Counted from the first letter of the stretch, positions 2,813-64,000 are shown. The stretch is 64,000 bases of DNA from Spirochaetota bacterium (GCA_965277105.1 OZ255710.1:949936-1013935); one strand, 5' to 3'. Notes: generated by a model not told the origin, from the letters alone. Numbers and translations: made by a program.

Positions 2813-4744
2813 ATGAGTAAAAAAGCCCCCGATAAAGACAATAAAAAATTTCTAAAAGATCTAGAAAAAAAGTTAAAAAACCAGAAAAAACCTGACCCTA
2901 ATAAAAAACCGCAAAAGCCTACTTCCCCTTGGAATAGATTTTCTTTATTTTTAATTTCTTTGTTAGTAATCTTCACCTTAGTGAGCCTTTACAACCAAGA
3001 CGGGCAAGATAAAAAAGTAGTCGAAATTGCTTACTCTGATTTTGTTAGAAACGTTGAAGATGGGCTCATTAAAGAAGCGCTAATTATCGAGAACTTAAGC
3101 CTTATTGAGTTTGAAAAAGATGGTATTGCTTATAGCACTCGTATCCCCTACCCCGATGATAACCTCATCAATATCCTACTAACTAATGACGTTAAAATCA
3201 ACTCGGAAACCAGAGAGCAATCTAAAATTCTTCTTATTTTCTTGCAGTGGCTACCGTGGATTTTTTTAATGCTTTTTTTCTGGTTTATTATCTCCAAACA
3301 AATTAAAGGGCGCGGAGGAGAAGCTTTTAACTTTGGGAAAAGCAAGGCCAATATGGTTGATAAAGAAAAAATTAAAGAACGATTTTCGGATGTCAAAGGC
3401 TGTGATGAGGCTATTGAAGATTTAAAAGATGTCGTAACTTTTTTGTCAGAATCACGAAAGTTTACTCAAATCGGTGCTAAAATTCCTAAAGGCATTTTAC
3501 TTGTAGGCTCTCCGGGAACTGGGAAAACCCTACTAGCTAGAGCCATTGCCGGAGAGGCTAAAGTCCCTTTTTTCAATATTTCTGGATCAGACTTTGTGGA
3601 AATGTTTGTGGGTGTAGGAGCTTCTCGAGTTCGTGACTTATTTGAAAACGCTAAGAAAAAATCTCCTTGCATTATCTTTATTGACGAAATTGATGCTGTG
3701 GGGAGAGCTAGAGGAGTAGGCTATGGAGGAGGTAATGATGAAAGGGAGCAAACCCTTAACCAACTCCTAGTAGAAATGGATGGCTTTAAAAACGAGCAAG
3801 GGATTATTATTTTAGCCGCTACCAACCGAGTAGATGTTTTAGATAAAGCCTTACTTCGTCCCGGACGTTTTGACCGACAAGTCATAGTGGACGTCCCTGA
3901 CTTAAGGGGAAGGGAAGCCATTTTGCAGGTGCATGCTAGGAAAATTAAATACAGCAAAGATACCGATTTTAAAACCATTGCTCGCGGGACCATTGGATTT
4001 ACCGGAGCAGACTTGGCCAATTTAATCAATGAAGCGGCTTTATTTGCTACTAGAGCTAACCGCAAAGAAGTGAAGCAAATTGATTTAGAATTAGCCAAAG
4101 ATAAGATTATGCTGGGAGCCGAAAGGAAGTCCGTGTTCATTAATCCCCGAGAGAAAAAAAATACCGCTTATCACGAAGCCGGGCATGCGTTAGTAAGCCT
4201 ACTGACTCCTGAGGCTAATGACCTTAATAAAGTTACTATTGTTCCTCGTGGAAGAGCTTTAGGCGTAACCCACTTTTTACCAGAAGATGGGAAGCTAACT
4301 ATGTCGAAGAAACATCTAGAAGCTGAACTAAAAGTTTTATACGGCGGAAGAATAGCAGAAGAAATTATTTTTAAAGACGTCACCAACGGAGCCATGAACG
4401 ATATTGAGCGGGCAACTCAAATTGCTAGATCGATGGTTTGCGAATGGGGACTGAGTAATTTGGGCCCCATTTTTTACGGCGAGCAAGATAAAACCTTAGG
4501 CTACTTTGGTGGTGGTATGGGATCAGATAAAAATTATTCCCCTGATATACGGCTTAAAATTGATAATGAAATAAAATCTATTCTCAATAAAGCTTATAGG
4601 GAAGCCAAAAAAACATTAGTCACTAACATAAAAAAATTAAAAAAGCTAGCAGAAACTTTATTAGAAAAAGAAACCTTAGATGTCAAGGAAGTTTGTAAAC
4701 TGCTTAGTTTTGACTATAGTAAATTAAAAAATAAAACTAACTAA
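2813..4744 (+). CDS. ftsH: ATP-dependent zinc metalloprotease FtsH
   Basis: Walker [17 protein letters not shown] second region of homology, HEAGHA zinc site, N-terminal TM segments plus Lys-rich N-terminal extension. Confidence 0.95.
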
Positions 4745-4756
4745 AATAAAAAAGCT

Positions 4757-5743
4757 ATGAGAAATCTATCTTTAAAAAAAGTTTTTTTCTTTTCAATTTT
4801 AGCGGTTACACTAGTGATGACTATCTCGCTTTTTTTTATCCGGGAAGAGGAAATCTTTTCTCATAATAATGATCTCCAAAAAGAGTTATTTGTTTTTGAA
4901 GAAGAGTTTTTTCTTTTTATCAACGATGAGTTAGAAGAACTTTATCTAAAAAATGGTGAAGTAGATATCCCCCCCGAAGCAATCGAAAGTTTAGGCGCTC
5001 AAGCTCTAGAAAAAATTAACGACTTTGCTAAGGAAAAAAATATTAGCTCCCCGGATAACTCTGAAATACTTTTCCGCATTGAGAAACTTAAACTTTTTGT
5101 TTATCTTAACGTTCTTCATGACTACCAAAAAGCAGAAAATGCTTTAAATATTCTACCCAATACGGAAAATAAATTATTACTGATCAATGACTACATCCAG
5201 GCTTTTTCTTTTGACGAAGAAGAAAAAGTTAAAAGGTATTTAAAAACCAATAAAAATTGGATCCAAAATATGGATTACCAAACTTATAACGATTTTGAAA
5301 ACGCGATATTCCTCTCGGCTCCCATTGGAAAAAATTTCCCTGACTATCTAAAAAATTATCAAACTGTTTCAGGAGAAAAAATTAATCTGCAAAACAAGCA
5401 AGGAAAAATAATTTTAATTGACTTTTGGGCTAGCTGGTGTGTGCCTTGTTTAGCTGAGTTGCCTTACCTCATTGAAGCCCACAATGCTTATAAAAATAAA
5501 GGTTTTGAAATCATATCTATTAGTTTAGATGAAGATCGCGACACTTTTTTTAACTTCCTACAGAAATGGCAAATCAAATGGGCTCAGTTTTTTGATGGCA
5601 AAGGATTTACTGGAAAACTAGTAAACGACTACGGAGTAAAATCGCTCCCCACTACTTTCTTGCTTAATGAAAAGGGGGAAGTAATTGAAAAAGATTTATC
5701 AGGAAATGACCTACTAAGGATTCTTCATAAATCTCTAAAATGA
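4757..5743 (+). CDS. TlpA/ResA-like thiol-disulfide oxidoreductase (thioredoxin fold) with N-terminal TM anchor and extra N-terminal domain
   Basis: FWASWCVPC redox motif, AhpC/TSA-like C-terminal domain, hydrophobic N-terminus. Confidence 0.8.
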   Translation: MRNLSLKKVFFFSILAVTLVMTISLFFIREEEIFSHNNDLQKELFVFEEEFFLFINDELEELYLKNGEVDIPPEAIESLGAQALEKINDFAKEKNISSPDNSEILFRIEKLKLFVYLNVLHDYQKAENALNILPNTENKLLLINDYIQAFSFDEEEKVKRYLKTNKNWIQNMDYQTYNDFENAIFLSAPIGKNFPDYLKNYQTVSGEKINLQNKQGKIILIDFWASWCVPCLAELPYLIEAHNAYKNKGFEIISISLDEDRDTFFNFLQKWQIKWAQFFDGKGFTGKLVNDYGVKSLPTTFLLNEKGEVIEKDLSGNDLLRILHKSLK

Positions 5744-5744
5744 A

Positions 5745-6440
5745 ATGTCTCTGGCCACCAACCTCACTACGATTCTAAAACGAATTAAAAATGCCTGTGA
5801 ACAAGTTGGCCGCCCTCTTACAGAAGTAAAACCTATTTGGGTTACTAAGACTGTTTCTATTGCTACTATTAAGGAAGTTCTTGCCTTAAATCAACAACTT
5901 ATAGGAGAAAACAAAGCACAAGAAATAGCAAAGAAAATTCCTTTGCTTAGAGAAAATAATTACCAGTGCCACTTCTTGGGAAATTTACAATCCAATAAAA
6001 TTAAAAACGTCATTCCTCATATTCACTACCTTCATTCCTTAGACAAAATAACCTTAGCTGAAAAAATAGAAAAATTTCTTCAGCAAAACCCTTCTTTACC
6101 TAAGCTAAAAGTACTAATTCAAATTAACTCAAGTGGAGAAACCAATAAACACGGTATCAAAGAAAACGAGCTTGACTTATTCCTCGAAAAAACTCTTGCT
6201 TTCTCGAGATTAGAAATAAAAGGATTAATGACGATGGCTCCTTTTACCGAAGACCAAAAAGCGATTAGAAGTTGTTTTAGAGGCCTGAAAAAACTCCAAT
6301 TAAAAACCTTAGAAAAATTTAAAGGCAAGCTGGAACTTAACGAACTTTCTATGGGCATGTCCAATGACTTTGAACTAGCTATCGCCGAAGGAGCTACTAT
6401 GGTTCGTATAGGACGGCTTTTATTTGGAGAAAGGAATTAG
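5745..6440 (+). CDS. YggS-family PLP-binding (pyridoxal phosphate homeostasis) protein
   Basis: Alanine-racemase-N-like fold motifs incl. HFLGNLQSNK and C-terminal RIGRLLFG. Confidence 0.8.
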   Translation: MSLATNLTTILKRIKNACEQVGRPLTEVKPIWVTKTVSIATIKEVLALNQQLIGENKAQEIAKKIPLLRENNYQCHFLGNLQSNKIKNVIPHIHYLHSLDKITLAEKIEKFLQQNPSLPKLKVLIQINSSGETNKHGIKENELDLFLEKTLAFSRLEIKGLMTMAPFTEDQKAIRSCFRGLKKLQLKTLEKFKGKLELNELSMGMSNDFELAIAEGATMVRIGRLLFGERN

Positions 6441-6449
6441 TTATCTAAA

Positions 6450-7997
6450 ATGAAAAACTGGATAAAGAAAATAAAAGAAGCAGATTTTCTAAAAAAAGCT
6501 ACCATTGAGAAAAAAACTATTTCTATTTTTTCTACTAAAAAATTAGTACAAAATACCCCTGGAAGCTTTTTATATCAAAACGATTTAATAGATAACCTGG
6601 GAAAAGAAATTACCATTGGAATTTATGAAGACTCTGATTATCAAGAAAATATTTTAATTGGTCATAACGAAATTTATTTGCGTTCTTTTTTTTACAAAAC
6701 CCTAACCGCGAAGACTAAAGAAGAATTAATCACTTTTATTTTTTATCATCAAATTGTTAAAGACCCTGCCTTTAACGATCTCTTGATTGATTTAAATGGT
6801 TTGTTAAATGATTTTCTAAAAAGCCGCCAACAAATTTTAAATTCGGAAGAATTTCATTTTCTCTATGAAGAAATCTCCAAAGAGCATTTGATTTCTATTT
6901 TGGGACTAATTTTTGTTTCCCTTATGCATTATAAAACATTTGACCAAAAACTCAATTTAATTGAAAAGAAAAATCTCAAAGAAATTTTCTTCGCTAAAAA
7001 AATGAAAAAGTTACTAGGACTCGAAGATGATGCCTTTGAGTACATTTATGAAAAAAATGATTTTAAAAAACCACCTAAAGCAGTAATCGAAAATTACACG
7101 AAAATAAAAGAAGTTATCGAAAATAAAAAAATTAGTTTTATGGAATATATTCATAGGACTATTTTGCAAAAAAAAATTCTCTTCTGGGGAATTTGGACTA
7201 TAAGCCCTTTTTTAGCCTTAGACATTAGCATCTTTTTAAACCTACTAAGTCAAAGTAAAAATCTTAAACGAATCTATATTGATTTACCCATTAGTAGTGA
7301 AATCATTTTAAAAAAAATTATTGCCGAAGAAAAGTTTTCTCAACAAGAAGATGCTGTGGAGAGAGAAATAAAAAAACTATACCCTAATTTTGTCGAAGAC
7401 TATGCTAAAGAAACCTTGCCTTATTTCGCCCTTTTAGAAAAGATAAAAATCTTTAATATTCCTTTTTTTCTTAATGGTTTTTCCGGAGAAGAAATCCCTT
7501 ACAAAGTGCCCCAGGTTATCAATAAAGAATTAGTTTTTGAAAATGAGCAAGATTGGGAAGAAAGCATTTCTCTAGAAATAAAAAATCTGGATAAAATTAG
7601 TGACCAAGAATTAGTTATTTTTTTCTTTTTTTTAAAACCCATGCACTTTTTGCCTCCCTCTATTCAAAAAAATTCTAAAGTAGAAAAACTTATCCACGGG
7701 GACCCTTTTTTAGGATATGGACCCAAAAAAGCAGAAAACTCAATTGCTACCTACTCCCAATACAATACCGATAAATCTTATTCTTTTATTATTGAAAATA
7801 TTGACAAGCTTTACTTTAAAGATGAAATTATTAATCATTACCCACAATCTAAGTTTCTTATTTATCCTTTAAAAAACAGTCATTTTAATCAGTTTGGTTT
7901 ATTTGATAGTCTTATGTATTCTAATTTTAAAGGTGGGGGAGGCTTTGATGAAAAGCGCACTCCTTTTATCCCGACAAAAGATAAGATTAGGGTATAA
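6450..7997 (+). CDS. Hypothetical protein (515 aa), no recognisable domain
   Basis: Long ORF with genome-typical codon usage, last gene of the ftsH-side plus-strand array. Confidence 0.55.
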   Translation: MKNWIKKIKEADFLKKATIEKKTISIFSTKKLVQNTPGSFLYQNDLIDNLGKEITIGIYEDSDYQENILIGHNEIYLRSFFYKTLTAKTKEELITFIFYHQIVKDPAFNDLLIDLNGLLNDFLKSRQQILNSEEFHFLYEEISKEHLISILGLIFVSLMHYKTFDQKLNLIEKKNLKEIFFAKKMKKLLGLEDDAFEYIYEKNDFKKPPKAVIENYTKIKEVIENKKISFMEYIHRTILQKKILFWGIWTISPFLALDISIFLNLLSQSKNLKRIYIDLPISSEIILKKIIAEEKFSQQEDAVEREIKKLYPNFVEDYAKETLPYFALLEKIKIFNIPFFLNGFSGEEIPYKVPQVINKELVFENEQDWEESISLEIKNLDKISDQELVIFFFFLKPMHFLPPSIQKNSKVEKLIHGDPFLGYGPKKAENSIATYSQYNTDKSYSFIIENIDKLYFKDEIINHYPQSKFLIYPLKNSHFNQFGLFDSLMYSNFKGGGGFDEKRTPFIPTKDKIRV

Positions 7998-29190: not shown

Positions 29191-29790
29191 ATGGATTTTT
29201 CTAAAGCAAAAAAAGACTTTTATACTCTAAAAGCTAAAAGAGAAAACGTTAGAGCTAGGAGCTTTTATAAGCTACAAGAAATGGATGAAAAGTTTCTTTT
29301 AATAAAAAAACATCAACAACTACTAGATTTAGGGTGTGCTCCCGGCTCTTGGTCTCAGTATTGCTTTAAAAAAACCCAAAATAATATTCATATAGTTGGA
29401 TTGGATTTAACCGCCACTTCTTTATCTTTATATAAGGATAACTTCTTTTTTATTCAAGAAAATATTTTTAATTTTTCTAAGGAGAGTTTAAAAGGCATTG
29501 CTATTCCAAACGAACACTTTGATGGGATTATTAGCGATGTGGCTCCCAAAACTTCGGGCATAAAAGCAAAAGATAGCTACGAGTCTTTTGAGCTGGTTAG
29601 TCAAGTGATTAGTTTAGGAGAAATTTTTTTAAAAGAAAAAGGGTTTATTATTTTTAAGTATTTTTTAGGAGAAGAATTTCAGGAACTTAAAGAAAGATTT
29701 CAAAAGGCTTTTAAATTATTGAAAATTTTCAAGCCCCAGGCTAGTCGAAAAGATTCTAAAGAATTATTTTTTATAGGAGAAAAAAAATGA
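29191..29790 (+). CDS. rlmE: 23S rRNA (uridine2552-2-prime-O)-methyltransferase RlmE/FtsJ
   Basis: LDLGCAPGSWSQY motif I and IISDVAPKTSG motif. Stop overlaps argG start (ATGA). Confidence 0.85.
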   Translation: MDFSKAKKDFYTLKAKRENVRARSFYKLQEMDEKFLLIKKHQQLLDLGCAPGSWSQYCFKKTQNNIHIVGLDLTATSLSLYKDNFFFIQENIFNFSKESLKGIAIPNEHFDGIISDVAPKTSGIKAKDSYESFELVSQVISLGEIFLKEKGFIIFKYFLGEEFQELKERFQKAFKLLKIFKPQASRKDSKELFFIGEKK

Positions 29791-30995
29791 AAAAAGTTAT
29801 TTTAGCCTACTCGGGAGGTTTAGACACTTCGGTAATCTGCAAATGGTTATCAGAAAAAAATTATCAAGTCGTTTGTTATGTCGCTGACGTAGGGCAACAA
29901 GCAGATTTTGCAGCAATAAAAAAAAAGGCTATAAACTCGGGGGCCAGCAAGGTAGTTGTAGAAAATTTGCAAGATGAGTTCTTGGACAAATTTATCTTGC
30001 CGGCTTTAGGATTTAACGCCCTTTACGAAAGTAGGTACCTTTTAGGGACTTCCCTCGCTAGGCCGTTAATCGCTAAGGGGCTAGTGAACTGCGCTAAAAA
30101 GGAAAAGGCGAACATCATAGCCCATGGGGCTACTGGCAAGGGCAATGATCAAGTACGCTTTGAAATATCGGCCTATTCTCTAAATCCTAAAATCACCATT
30201 ATCGCTCCTTGGCGAATGAAAGAGTTTTACTCAGTTATCAAGGGAAGAAAAGAAGCCATTAGCTACGCTAAAAAACATAATATAAAAATAGCGGCCACTT
30301 CTTCTGAGCCCTGGTCTTCTGATGACAACCTTTATCACATTAGCTTTGAAGCAGGGATACTAGAAAACCCCGAACAAAAACCACCAGAAAAAATGTTTCA
30401 ATACAGTACAAGTATTTTAAAAAGCCCCAATAAAATAACTCCAATAAACTTAGAATTTCAAAAAGGAATTCCTGTGAAAATCAATAATCAATCCCTTTCC
30501 CCGGTAAAAATCTTACAGCGCCTTAATCAACTAGGGGGAGAAAATGGAGTGGGTAGAGTGGATATCGTAGAAAGCCGTTTTTTAGGGATGAAAAGTCGAG
30601 GCGTCTATGAAACTCCTGGGGGGACAATCCTCCACCAAGCTCACGTGGATCTTGAAACTTTTACATTGAGTAGAGAATTATTAAGGTTGAAAAATTCTTT
30701 GATGTTACGCTTTTCTGATTTAGTCTATAATGGCTTTTGGTATACCGAAGAGATGAATTGCCTTTTAGCTTTTCTTAAAGAAAGTCAAAAAAACGTTAGT
30801 GGGATTGTTGATTTAGAGATTATCAAAGGCAATGTCATTATTACCGGACGAAAGTCAAACGGAAGTCTTTATAACGAAAAAATTGCCTCTATGGACGATG
30901 ATGGCGGAGCTTATAATATTGAAGATGCTAGTGGGTTTATTAAAATCAATGCCTTGAACGTGAAAGCAGAAAAGCTGCGTGGGAAAGAAAAGTGA
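29787..30995 (+). CDS. argG: Argininosuccinate synthase
   Basis: AYSGGLDTS PP-loop, conserved ArgG body; SD-like TAGGAGA 8 nt upstream. Confidence 0.95.
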   Translation: MKKVILAYSGGLDTSVICKWLSEKNYQVVCYVADVGQQADFAAIKKKAINSGASKVVVENLQDEFLDKFILPALGFNALYESRYLLGTSLARPLIAKGLVNCAKKEKANIIAHGATGKGNDQVRFEISAYSLNPKITIIAPWRMKEFYSVIKGRKEAISYAKKHNIKIAATSSEPWSSDDNLYHISFEAGILENPEQKPPEKMFQYSTSILKSPNKITPINLEFQKGIPVKINNQSLSPVKILQRLNQLGGENGVGRVDIVESRFLGMKSRGVYETPGGTILHQAHVDLETFTLSRELLRLKNSLMLRFSDLVYNGFWYTEEMNCLLAFLKESQKNVSGIVDLEIIKGNVIITGRKSNGSLYNEKIASMDDDGGAYNIEDASGFIKINALNVKAEKLRGKEK

Positions 30996-31065
30996 GTTTT
31001 GGAGGAAGTGATAAAAAGTAAAAAGCAAAAACTAGTAAAAGCTTTGAAGTAAATAGTCGATAAAC

Positions 31066-32060
31066 ATGCCGAAAGGAAGTGCCAATAAAAATCTTCACCA
31101 AGCCAAAAGCTCCAAGAAAGACGATTTTATACCCAGCTAGTAGATATCGAAAACGAGCTCAAGCATTACAAAAAACACTTCCAGGGCAAGACCGTTTATT
31201 GCAACTGCGACGACCCCAGGATAAGTAATTTCTTCCACTACTTTTCTTATAGCTTCGAGCACCTCGGCCTGAAAAAACTCATTACCACTTGCTATCAAAG
31301 TCAAGAGCGAGATTTATTCAGCACCAACAGTAGCGAAAAAGCCATCTACCTAGAATACAACGGCGATAAAAACGGCAACCGCGTTCCCGACTTAGAAGAA
31401 ATAGGAGTGCATCACTTAAAAGGCGACGGGGATTTTAGAAGCAAGGAATGCATCGAACTCCTGCAAGAAGCGGACATCGTCGTTACCAACCCTCCCTTCT
31501 CTCTTTTTAGGGAATACGTCGCCCAGCTAATCGAGTATGATAAAAAGTTTTTGATAATTGGGAGTATTAACGCTATTACTTATAAAGAAATTTTTAAACT
31601 TATTAAAGAAAATAAATTATGGCTTGGCCCTAGTATTTTTAGCGGGGATAGGGAATTTGGTGTGCCTCAAGGTTACCCTTTAAAAGCCGCTGGCTATAGA
31701 GTAGATGAGCAGGGGAATAAATTTATAAGAGTCAAAGGAGTTCGTTGGTTCACTAACCTTCCCCACAACAAACGCTACGAAGATCTTATTTTATACAAAA
31801 CCTACCGAGGCAATGAGGATCATTATCCTACTTATGACAACTACGATGCTATCGAAGTGAGCAAAACCAAAGATATCCCCATGGACTACGAGGGAGCGAT
31901 GGGCGTGCCGATTACTTTTTTAGATAAATATAACCCCGAGCAGTTTGAAATAATTGGTAAAATGAGTACAACAAAATTAGACAAATATAATTTTGGATAT
32001 CCTTATATTAAAGGAAATAAAATTTACGCAAGAATTATTATTAAAAATAAAAAACTATAA
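31066..32060 (+). pseudogene. EcoRI-methylase-family N6-adenine DNA methyltransferase (M.EcoRI homologue), split by a -1 frameshift in a T4 tract at 31125-31128. No cognate endonuclease gene
   Basis: ATG at 31066 encodes MPKGSANKNLHQAKSSKKDDF then stops. The next frame continues YTQLVDIENELKHYKKHFQGKTVYCNCDDP ... DIVVTNPPFSLFREY ... to the stop at 32060 (GTG-initiated ORF 31407-32060 in the supplied track). GC content is about 45% versus about 30% background. Confidence 0.85.
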
Positions 32061-32078
32061 AAAAAGGAAGATTGCGTT

Positions 32079-33116
32079 TTAAGAAAAGTTACTCCATTTT
32101 TCTAATAGTTCGCTAGCCTGACCACTAGTGACTATTTTTTCTACTTCGAATAAAGACTTTTTCAAAGGAATATCTTTATAAACCTTAAAAGCCAAAGCAG
32201 CGTTTAAAACTACAATATCTTTTTTGGCTCCTTTTTCTTTACCTTCTAAAATGTTTAAGGCAATTTTTTTATTATCATCTAGGTTTTTGCTGACAATACT
32301 ACTTAAAGGATATTTTTTAAAACCCAATTCCTCTGGGCTTAGCCAATATTTTTTTAGTTGCTTTTGATTAAACTCCACAATGTAAGTTTTAGCCGAAACA
32401 CTAGCCTCGTCAAGCCCGTCTTCACTACTGAGCACCATCCCCCTTTTTACGCCCAACGCCTTTAAAACTTTAGCCAAAGGGAGGCAATAGTTTTTATCAT
32501 AAACGCCCATTATTTGATAATCTATTTTCATAGGATTAAGTAGAGGGCCGAGAACATTAAAGATAGTCCTAAACCCCAAAGCCTTTCTAACGGGCATAAC
32601 ATACTTCATAACCGGATGAAGATTAGGGGCAAACAAAAAAGCGATGCCTATTTCTTTAAGGCACTTTTCTATTTTTTCAGGAGATAGATGAATGGGGATC
32701 CCTAACTTCTCCAACAAATCAGCACTGCCACATTTAGAAGTAATGGATCTATTGCCATGCTTACTAACTTTAACCCCGAGAGCAGCCAAAACAATGGCAG
32801 AAATAGTAGAAATATTAAAGGTGCTTTTATGATCCCCACCAGTCCCACAAGTGTCTATTATAGGTTCTCTAAATGGTTTTTTGATAGTAATGGCTTTTTT
32901 CTTTAAGGCTTTCGCTAGCCCATAAATTTCCTCAAAAGTTTCACCTTTAGTGTGGAGAGCAGTAAGGGTAGCCGCCACTTGAGGTTCAAGCATTTTCCCT
33001 TCGCCAATAGCTAGCATTAGTTTTTCGGCTTCTTCACTAGTAAGGTTTTTTTGTTCTATTAGTTTTTGATAAATCTCTAAAAAAGTTTTTTGGGTATTTT
33101 TTTTTGGATTAGGCAT
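32079..33116 (-). CDS. trpD: Anthranilate phosphoribosyltransferase
   Basis: GTGGD motif and conserved TrpD body. Confidence 0.9.
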   Translation of the reverse strand: MPNPKKNTQKTFLEIYQKLIEQKNLTSEEAEKLMLAIGEGKMLEPQVAATLTALHTKGETFEEIYGLAKALKKKAITIKKPFREPIIDTCGTGGDHKSTFNISTISAIVLAALGVKVSKHGNRSITSKCGSADLLEKLGIPIHLSPEKIEKCLKEIGIAFLFAPNLHPVMKYVMPVRKALGFRTIFNVLGPLLNPMKIDYQIMGVYDKNYCLPLAKVLKALGVKRGMVLSSEDGLDEASVSAKTYIVEFNQKQLKKYWLSPEELGFKKYPLSSIVSKNLDDNKKIALNILEGKEKGAKKDIVVLNAALAFKVYKDIPLKKSLFEVEKIVTSGQASELLEKWSNFS

Positions 33117-62793: not shown

Positions 62794-63609
62794 ATGTTTA
62801 AAAACATCCCCACTTTTGTCGTTAACCTGAAAAGAAGCACCGAAAGAAGAAAGTATATCGAAAATCACCTTAAAAGCAAAAATATCCAATATGAACTCAT
62901 CGAAGCCGTTGATGGTAAAACCCTCACTCAAGAGCAAATAAAAGCAGTGACTGGTAAAAAAGGATTTATTGAACTTCAGCAACTTAACCAGGAATTTTGC
63001 TCTAATAATAATAAAGAGCTAATAACTATGACTAAAAGCACCATAGGTTGCGCTTTAAGCCACATTAAAATTTTCAAACGAATCGTCAATGAAGCAATTC
63101 CCTACGCTTTAATCCTAGAAGACGATGCTATGATTGAAGATGGAATTGATAATGACTTCCTAGATTCTCTGCCTATGAATTGGGACGTTTTGCTTTTGGG
63201 GTATCGGTTAAATCATGATGTCCCTCCTGATCCTGTTCCTTGTAGTTTTTGGGGAAGGTATAAAAAAAATAATTTTGTTATGGCTAAGCCAGTAAGAAAA
63301 AGGATGGTCTACTGCACTCATGGGTACATTGTTAGCCAGCAAGGGGCCAAGAGGCTACTAAAGCTAACTCACCCACTAGAAAAACCCATAGATCATTTAA
63401 CCGGGGATAGAAGTTTAGTAAACCTCTTCATTTTTAAAAAACCAATTATTAGCTTGTCTTACACCCATGCTACTACTTCTACTATTTACCCCGAAAATTT
63501 TGGTGCTTTTGATAAAAGAGACACTAAAAAAACTAATTTTATAATTAAATTTATAAAAACCCTAAAAAAAATTAATTTTAAAATAATTTTTAGACAACTT
63601 TTACCTTAG
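62794..63609 (+). CDS. Glycosyltransferase family 25 (LOS/LPS beta-glycosyltransferase, Lic2B/LgtB-like)
   Basis: N-terminal FVVNLKRSTERRKYIENHL and GCALSH motifs typical of GT25. Confidence 0.8.
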   Translation: MFKNIPTFVVNLKRSTERRKYIENHLKSKNIQYELIEAVDGKTLTQEQIKAVTGKKGFIELQQLNQEFCSNNNKELITMTKSTIGCALSHIKIFKRIVNEAIPYALILEDDAMIEDGIDNDFLDSLPMNWDVLLLGYRLNHDVPPDPVPCSFWGRYKKNNFVMAKPVRKRMVYCTHGYIVSQQGAKRLLKLTHPLEKPIDHLTGDRSLVNLFIFKKPIISLSYTHATTSTIYPENFGAFDKRDTKKTNFIIKFIKTLKKINFKIIFRQLLP

Positions 63610-63743
63610 GATTCTAAAATAAGACAAAAAAACAATAACGGAAGAAATACAATATTAAGCATTAAAATTAATAAACATTATATACTTGTTTAAATAAAAT
63701 CGCCTGCTAATTCACCACTTAAACGGGAAATAAAGAAAACCTA

Positions 63744-64000
63744 TGTTTAAAAATATCCCCACTTTTGTCGTTAACCTGAAAAGAAGCACCGAAAGAAGAA
63801 AATATATCGAAAATCACCTTAAAGATAAAAATATCCAATATGAACTAATAGAGGCAGTAGATAGAGAAAATCTAACAGAAGAACAAATAAGAAAAGTAGC
63901 TGATAAAGAGTGGGTTATCAAACTAAGCAGCCAACTTCCGCAAGTATTGAAAGGCATAATAGGCTGTGCCTTAAGTCATAAAAAGATTTTTAAACGAATT
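63744..64000 (+). CDS. Second GT25 glycosyltransferase paralog (5-prime part; continues beyond window)
   Basis: MFKNIPTFVVNLKRSTERRKYIENHLKDKNIQYELIEAVD ...; first ~105 nt nearly identical to 62794-62905. Confidence 0.75.

Follow-up and report, generated by a model that had tools for sequence, protein, structure and literature searches.

M.EcoRI, which modifies GAATTC by N6-adenine methylation (m6A), is encoded beside a gene annotated as 'type-2 restriction enzyme EcoRI' (the methylase is WP_002670781.1 of the E. coli plasmid NZ_OW967970.1) and is 326 amino acids long (PMC4081073). Other methylases of the same family, EcoRI_methylase (PF13651), occur in two-gene cassettes with a nuclease composed of DUF262 and HNH regions, of the type represented by WP_014928793.1/WP_014928792.1 of the Gordonia sp. 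KTR9 plasmid pGKT1. This DUF262+HNH cassette is not new, as PADLOC already has it. Also relevant for comparison are the lineage-conserved orphan methyltransferases of the Dam and CcrM type, which have no adjacent nuclease, and the phasevarions (mod genes of Type III together with certain Type II and Type I genes), where a simple repeat close to the 5' end interrupts the methyltransferase frame.

The gene described here lies between argG and trpD in the window, i.e., the whole 64-kb stretch of DNA that was analyzed, from whose first letter all window positions are counted. Judging from its sequence, it codes for a DNA methyltransferase of the N6-adenine type and belongs to the EcoRI_methylase family, the activity being predicted. 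It shares with M.EcoRI the PF13651 domain, the NPPF motif, and 54.1% identity over the full length (the window protein, once its frame is repaired, has 331 residues), but falls into another clade, is frameshifted, and is accompanied by neither an R.EcoRI gene nor a remnant of one. The methylases of the Gordonia-type cassettes are 65–79% identical to it; it nests among them and agrees with them in start, length, and invariant residues. Unlike these cassettes, the window locus carries no trace of the nuclease, its methylase is frameshifted, and it is situated on the chromosome between two biosynthetic genes, a position that bears no hallmarks of a mobile element. The gene resembles the Dam and CcrM orphans in having no adjacent nuclease; unlike them, it is not found at the same locus in its nearest relative, has a foreign composition, and is disrupted.

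In our opinion, the locus is probably the remnant of a restriction-modification (R-M) system that was recently acquired and then recently inactivated by a real one-nucleotide deletion. The preliminary description of this DNA had offered three options, namely, a decaying remnant of a mobile R-M system, a solitary methyltransferase toggled by homopolymer slippage, or an assembly error at a homopolymer, and the first of these fits best. The locus would then be an ordinary, expected decay product of a Type II R-M cassette; less likely, the solitary methylase is intact and a single consensus error accounts for the shift. In annotation, frameshifted (pseudo)gene with membership in the EcoRI_methylase family is the appropriate label, whereas the name 'M.EcoRI' and a GAATTC-specific assignment should be avoided. 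Beyond annotation, the locus has little significance; it would exemplify the end state of an R-M cassette, in which the nuclease is gone, the methylase stands alone, and the first disabling lesion has just been acquired.

Reading frames and family of the methyltransferase gene

The methylase gene has no uninterrupted frame, being broken by a one-nucleotide deletion in the T run at 31125–31128 and a stop codon at 31138–31140 (Table 1). Translation of frame 0 from the ATG at 31066 yields MPKGSANKNLHQAKSSKKDDFIPS, i.e., 24 codons, and ends at this TAG, as had been described initially. The −1 (equivalently, +2) frame is open from 31087 to a TAA ending at 32060 and holds every peptide quoted in the preliminary description, including NPPF. 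An open frame of 325 codons in DNA of 33–39% GC cannot be a product of chance.

The homopolymer listing of the window gives the run as T4, and insertion of one T into it produces, upon translation, a methylase product of 331 amino acids. This product, the window sequence with one T added to the T4 run, is termed the repaired protein below. When the best homologue (P0002) was compared with the window by tblastn, its residues 1–21 matched frame 1 at 31066–31128, while its residues 13–329 matched frame 3 at 31101–32057. Because the two pieces lie in different frames, the frame change is confined to GAT-TTT-(T)AT, i.e., to the T run. The one-nucleotide deletion in a T tract proposed earlier is borne out both by the repair and by the meeting of the tblastn pieces at this run. 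At the shift site, all 119 aligned homologues have K-D-[ED]-F-Y-T-Q-L, with no change of frame.

The first ATG, GTG, or TTG codon of the −1 frame is the GTG at 31407. A product initiated there would be devoid of the N-terminal 113 residues, where more than 30 invariant positions lie; for this reason, it is not expected to be an active enzyme. The 217-aa ORF started by GTG has no entry in the protein collection.

Table 1. Features of the methyltransferase locus and of its boundaries; positions refer to the window.
Feature	Position	Strand	Basis
argG, left boundary	29787..30995	+	Pfam PF00764 and PF20979; tblastx collinearity with L001 to 30989
AT-rich 70-nt spacer, argG stop to methyltransferase ATG	30996..31065	+	no convincing promoter or Shine-Dalgarno sequence
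Methyltransferase 5' segment, frame 0, codons 1–21, MPKGSANKNLHQAKSSKKDDF	31066..31128	+	translation; 67% identity to P0002 residues 1–21; invariant A13, K17, F21
T4 run, site of the one-nucleotide deletion; ancestral GAT TTY TAT (D-F-Y)	31125..31128	+	run listing; tblastn bracketing; 119 homologues unshifted
Methyltransferase 3' segment, −1 frame, codons 22–331 and TAA	31129..32060	+	open frame; PF13651; 90 invariant columns kept
Premature TAG, frame 0, three codons past the shift	31138..31140	+	translation
Catalytic motif IV, N-P-P-F (AAC CCT CCC TTC)	31488..31499	+	sequence; P143, P144, F145 invariant and N142 nearly so in 120 sequences
18-nt spacer, methyltransferase stop to convergent trpD stop	32061..32078	.	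no room for, or remnant of, a nuclease gene
trpD, right boundary, first of the convergent trpE-trpG-trpD run	32079..33116	-	Pfam PF00591 and PF02885

The repaired protein matches the entire PF13651 profile (positions 1–345 of 345) over its residues 9–329, with 474.8 bits (E = 2.4e-142) against a gathering cut-off of 26.4 bits. It is also matched by the PADLOC MTase_II model PDLC03297 (E = 2.5e-132); neither the NCBIfam models nor the solved structures contained a match to it. Its scored homologues number more than 8,000, with 79% identity for the best, and they read K-K-D-E-F-Y-T-Q-L uninterrupted across the shift site. Family membership is thereby confirmed at full profile length, and so is the collinear similarity to M.EcoRI that the preliminary description had put forward, NPPF included, the alignment extending over 100% of the query.

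An alignment of 120 sequences provides a measure of drift. The repaired protein retains the invariant residue in 90 of 90 invariant columns and deviates at 4 of the 179 columns that are at least 90% conserved. The intact homologues (n = 119) deviate on average at 3.5 ± 2.5 such columns, and 54 of them do so as often as the repaired protein or more often. By this measure, the repaired protein exhibits no excess drift and no sign of neutral drift, which implies that the frameshift is either very recent or not real.

The branch of the family and its nuclease partners

The position of the window methylase within the family is indicated by its neighbors in a neighbor-joining tree: 17 of the 20 nearest are followed by a DUF262+HNH nuclease gene, three have no detected partner, and none is linked to R.EcoRI. 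The R.EcoRI-linked methylases, the E. coli one included, form a separate clade of 12 leaves that excludes the window protein. The tree distance from the window protein to these methylases is at least 0.42, versus 0.18–0.33 to the 20 nearest neighbors. Within its own clade, identity to the window protein is 65–79%, with the best matches at 72–79%. By its tree position, the window gene is no orthologue of M.EcoRI, although it belongs to the EcoRI_methylase family. As the closest relatives are linked to DUF262+HNH nucleases and the nuclease is absent here, GAATTC specificity would be an assumption.

The gene context of the relatives was compared in the nearest related genome (L012), two metagenome genomes (L013 and L021), and two plasmids, Gordonia pGKT1 and one of Chryseobacterium. 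In five of five contexts, the DUF262+HNH gene lies directly downstream of the methylase gene; the methylase stop and the nuclease start usually overlap, and the nuclease comprises about 360 amino acids with GmrSD_N/DUF262 and HNH regions. These partners are 54–63% identical to one another, and the PADLOC REase_II model PDLC03418 covers the partner end to end (E = 5e-140). The nuclease carries no NCBIfam name, its PDB relatives are confined to the HNH motif, and the literature searched contained neither a recognition site nor a prototype enzyme for the cassette. Among the best 80 IMG/VR loci, a DUF262-HNH gene follows the methylase in 57, an R.EcoRI-like gene precedes it in 8, and the remaining 15 contain neither of the two. 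It should be noted, for the curation of defence systems, that most close relatives of the window methylase travel with a DUF262+HNH nuclease, not with an EcoRI-type one.

The two-gene cassette occupies 8001–10093 in L012, 5001–7623 in L013, 5001–8213 in L021, and 2986–5216 in L025, and is present in 57 of the loci L026–L105; it is spread over Spirochaetota, Bacteroidota and Actinomycetota plasmids and viral contigs. The L021 cassette has tandem methylase genes of the EcoRI family (5001–5999 and 6136–7107) ahead of a single DUF262-HNH gene, their products having identities of 71% and 54%, respectively, with the window protein. On the Chryseobacterium taklimakanense plasmid NZ_CP034172 (L024), the methylase at 3001–3943 is likewise broken: it runs through three frames, both shifts lying close to the 3' end, next to a DUF262 nuclease annotated as intact. 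For a classical R-M pair such a combination is odd, except in the case of an inactive nuclease or of errors in the assembly.

Counts of GAATTC were also considered. The window contains 8 such sites versus 26.8 ± 5.2 expected from dinucleotide-preserving shuffles, at least 8 being present in 100 of 100 shuffles. The initial statement that GAATTC is not depleted is therefore contradicted under the dinucleotide model, though the deficit is not unique to this palindrome: the observed-to-model ratio is 0.30 for GAATTC, and AGATCT (0.37), AAGCTT (0.42), and CTTAAG (0.48) are similarly low, a 2- to 3-fold under-representation. Order-3 and order-4 Markov models predict only 11–12 GAATTC sites. Given the higher-order models and the other low palindromes, and with GAATTC being no more than an assumed site for the clade, the counts speak neither for nor against the methylase. 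ACTAGT, TCGCGA, and CTCGAG are over-represented in the window. The eight GAATTC sites span 16781–49019, and the window is too small for palindrome counts to be tied to any restriction system.

Genomic setting and probable foreign origin

The immediate setting is as first described, with argG directly upstream of the methylase gene at a distance of 70 nt and a convergent trpD 18 nt downstream. The other genes of the convergent run were assigned by Pfam domains, trpG by GATase and trpE by Chorismate_bind and Anth_synt_I_N. The statement that no restriction gene flanks the methylase also holds. Searched by tblastn, the 64-kb window contains no remnant of R.EcoRI (PF02963; best E = 1.3) and no remnant of the DUF262-HNH partner, five proteins of this type giving nothing below E = 0.8. 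A promoter and terminator scan returned nothing above shuffle expectation, and neither tRNA genes nor Rfam matches are present in the window. A candidate target-site duplication was rejected: the best flanking direct repeat, the 9-bp AAGAAAAGT at 30985 and 32081, lies inside both neighbor genes, and a rough, uncomputed estimate places it at chance level.

The segment had been described as GC-rich, at about 45% in surroundings of about 30%. These figures do not stand. The GC content of the methylase gene is 38.6% (43.5% in the 5' half and 33.9% in the 3' half), compared with 33.1% for the window, 38.7% for argG, and 35.8% for trpD, and the gene as a whole is not an outlier with respect to the 56 other ORFs (z = 1.5). 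What does stand out is GC3, which is 0.431 in the methylase gene versus 0.286 ± 0.039 in the 56 other ORFs (maximum 0.365; z = 3.7). Analogously, GC3 is 0.55 in the first 160 codons, and no 160-codon window of host genes exceeds 0.43.

Along the gene, GC3 is patchy, with values of 0.52–0.58 in codons 1–166, 0.24 in codons 167–221, 0.48 in codons 222–277, and 0.22 in codons 278–332. A mosaic origin was considered for this pattern and rejected, as the 5' half is GC3-richer in three of four homologous genes (clearly in L012, L017, and L021, and only marginally in the fourth, L013). The gradient thus seems to be largely a family trait and not evidence of recombination.

Synteny was compared with the nearest relative, a Spirochaetota metagenome genome (L001) in which argG is 75% identical. 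The two genomes are collinear through the genes for transketolase, a cNMP-binding/metallo-beta-lactamase protein, rlmE, and argG, and the collinearity ends at the argG stop. The breakpoint is located at 30989–30995 of the window and at 7203 of L001, and the methylase gene sits on it. A trpE-trpG-trpD run beside argG was seen in none of the relatives examined. The nearest relative carries its own methylase and nuclease cassette at an unrelated locus, and the methylase of that cassette (P0019) is the 19th closest of 119 to the window methylase, thus no nearer to it than copies of other lineages. Vertical inheritance shared with this relative was rejected on the basis of that rank and of the different context. 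The family is star-like, with a mean pairwise identity of 74% ± 4%, so that identity alone cannot settle whether descent was vertical or horizontal.

A comparison of the argG-trpD junction in related genomes had been suggested as a means of scoring presence or absence of the insert. The 3' flank of argG holds unrelated genes in L001 and in three more distant relatives (L022, L106, and L107), and none of the relatives available in the databases has an empty junction; the insertion is accordingly one that we infer. Members of the EcoRI_methylase family are abundant on plasmids and viral contigs. The horizontal acquisition of the methylase proposed in the preliminary description appears to be well supported, albeit not demonstrated, by the GC3 outlier, the synteny break, and the different location of the relative's copy; the GC content of the whole gene does not support it.

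Origin of the one-nucleotide deletion

The following course of events would account for the locus. The methylase belongs to a clade whose usual arrangement is a Type II R-M cassette of two genes, the methylase gene being followed by an overlapping gene for a DUF262+HNH protein of about 360 amino acids. Horizontal transfer would have brought it into an AT-rich, Spirochaetota-like genome of about 1.69 Mb, where it would have been left alone at the argG/trpD synteny breakpoint, with the nuclease gone. The GAT-TTT-TAT run would then have lost one base (T5 to T4), ending translation after 24 codons. A solitary methylase, having no nuclease to counter, would be dispensable and would decay, as is the usual end of an R-M cassette.

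That the deletion is a real mutation we consider probable, and the state of the other genes in the window argues for it. Apart from two intergenic regions of ordinary kind and the edge of the window, the 56 other ORFs tile it with gaps of less than 160 nt. A second split gene is absent from the 64 kb, despite 1,220 homopolymers that measure 5 nt or more, 272 of them 7 nt or more, and the A6 and T6 runs inside the methylase gene itself are in frame. Both the absence of another split gene and the intact A6 and T6 runs were counted in favor of a real mutation over an error.

The strongest rival is an assembly or base-calling error, in which case the true sequence would be T5 and the gene would encode an intact, expressed, solitary m6A methyltransferase, either an orphan with an epigenetic or anti-restriction role or the surviving half of a cassette. 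We hold this to be a possibility to be reckoned with, though an unlikely one. The conservation of the repaired protein is indistinguishable from that of intact homologues, and the sole lesion, being in a homopolymer, looks exactly like a consensus error. The source is a single metagenome contig of 1.69 Mb, with one assembly on record, and genomes recovered from metagenomes as one contig are frequently assembled from long reads. In the same archives, sister assemblies of this long-read type exhibit genes shattered by indels (L014, L016, and L020, as opposed to L013 and L017), and false pseudogenes created by frameshifts are a common and well-documented occurrence in public genomes (PMC11017572). 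Against these considerations, none of the approximately 57 genes in the 64 kb is split apart from the methylase gene, although the 272 longer runs would be far more error-prone than T5, and an error would need to have struck precisely the gene whose loss is, a priori, the easiest to tolerate. The assembly error named in the preliminary description thus retains the single homopolymer lesion and the lack of drift on its side, while the rest of the window speaks against it.

In the fragmented archive assemblies (ENA), which derive from long reads of the same populations as L013 and L017, the affected regions are 678–1523 of L014, 380–3898 of L016, and 889–3518 of L020, where neighboring genes for acyl-CoA dehydrogenase, a GKRP/SIS protein, and others are broken; the gene map of the window is clean by contrast.

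Phase variation, i.e., a phasevarion-like toggling of the gene between ON (T5) and OFF (T4) by slipped-strand mispairing, with epigenetic heterogeneity of the population as the outcome, is in our estimation very improbable. The shift does fall within a homopolymer, toward the 5' end of a methyltransferase gene that is intact in all other respects, and this is where phase-variation tracts are usually found, as in the Haemophilus, Neisseria, and Helicobacter mod genes. Contingency tracts, however, are typically 7–8 nt or longer, or consist of multi-copy repeats, whereas the tract in question is only 4–5 nt, far too short by comparison with phasevarions. Nothing sets it apart from the other homopolymers of the window, 2,566 of which measure 4 nt or more and 1,220 of which measure 5 nt or more, and the longer A6 and T6 runs of the same gene remain in frame. 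Moreover, what the homologues have in common at this site, D/E-F-Y, is conservation of residues and not expansion of a tract, and the window gene exhibits no expansion relative to them. The toggling by homopolymer slippage suggested earlier is accordingly poorly supported.

A related and similarly remote scenario is a real T4/T5 polymorphism in the natural population of this organism, which is uncultured and has a small genome, by which the captured methylase would be switched ON and OFF, or rescued at a low level by −1 slippage on U_UUU. If true, it would generate heterogeneous m6A methylomes from an unusually short tract. Scanning of the metagenome contigs with a pattern tolerant of T4 and T5 gave 0 matches, i.e., neither a second assembly nor a variant.

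The least probable explanation of all is programmed −1 ribosomal frameshifting, in which tRNA-Phe would slip from UUU to U-UU in GAU-UUU-AUA and the full 331-aa protein would be made: such a P-site slip on U_UUU would yield the conserved D-F-Y-T-Q-L exactly, but GAU-UUU-AUA does not match the X_XXY_YYZ heptamer, which is absent, the 82 nt downstream are no more stably folded than their shuffled versions (−9.7 kcal/mol; z = +0.37), and the frame changes here in 0 of 119 close homologues and 0 of 80 viral loci, which leaves no conserved recoding signal.

Elsewhere in the window, tandem paralogues of family-25 glycosyltransferase (PF01755) are encoded at 62794–63609 and 63743–64000, the second of which runs past the window end; their first 27 residues are identical.
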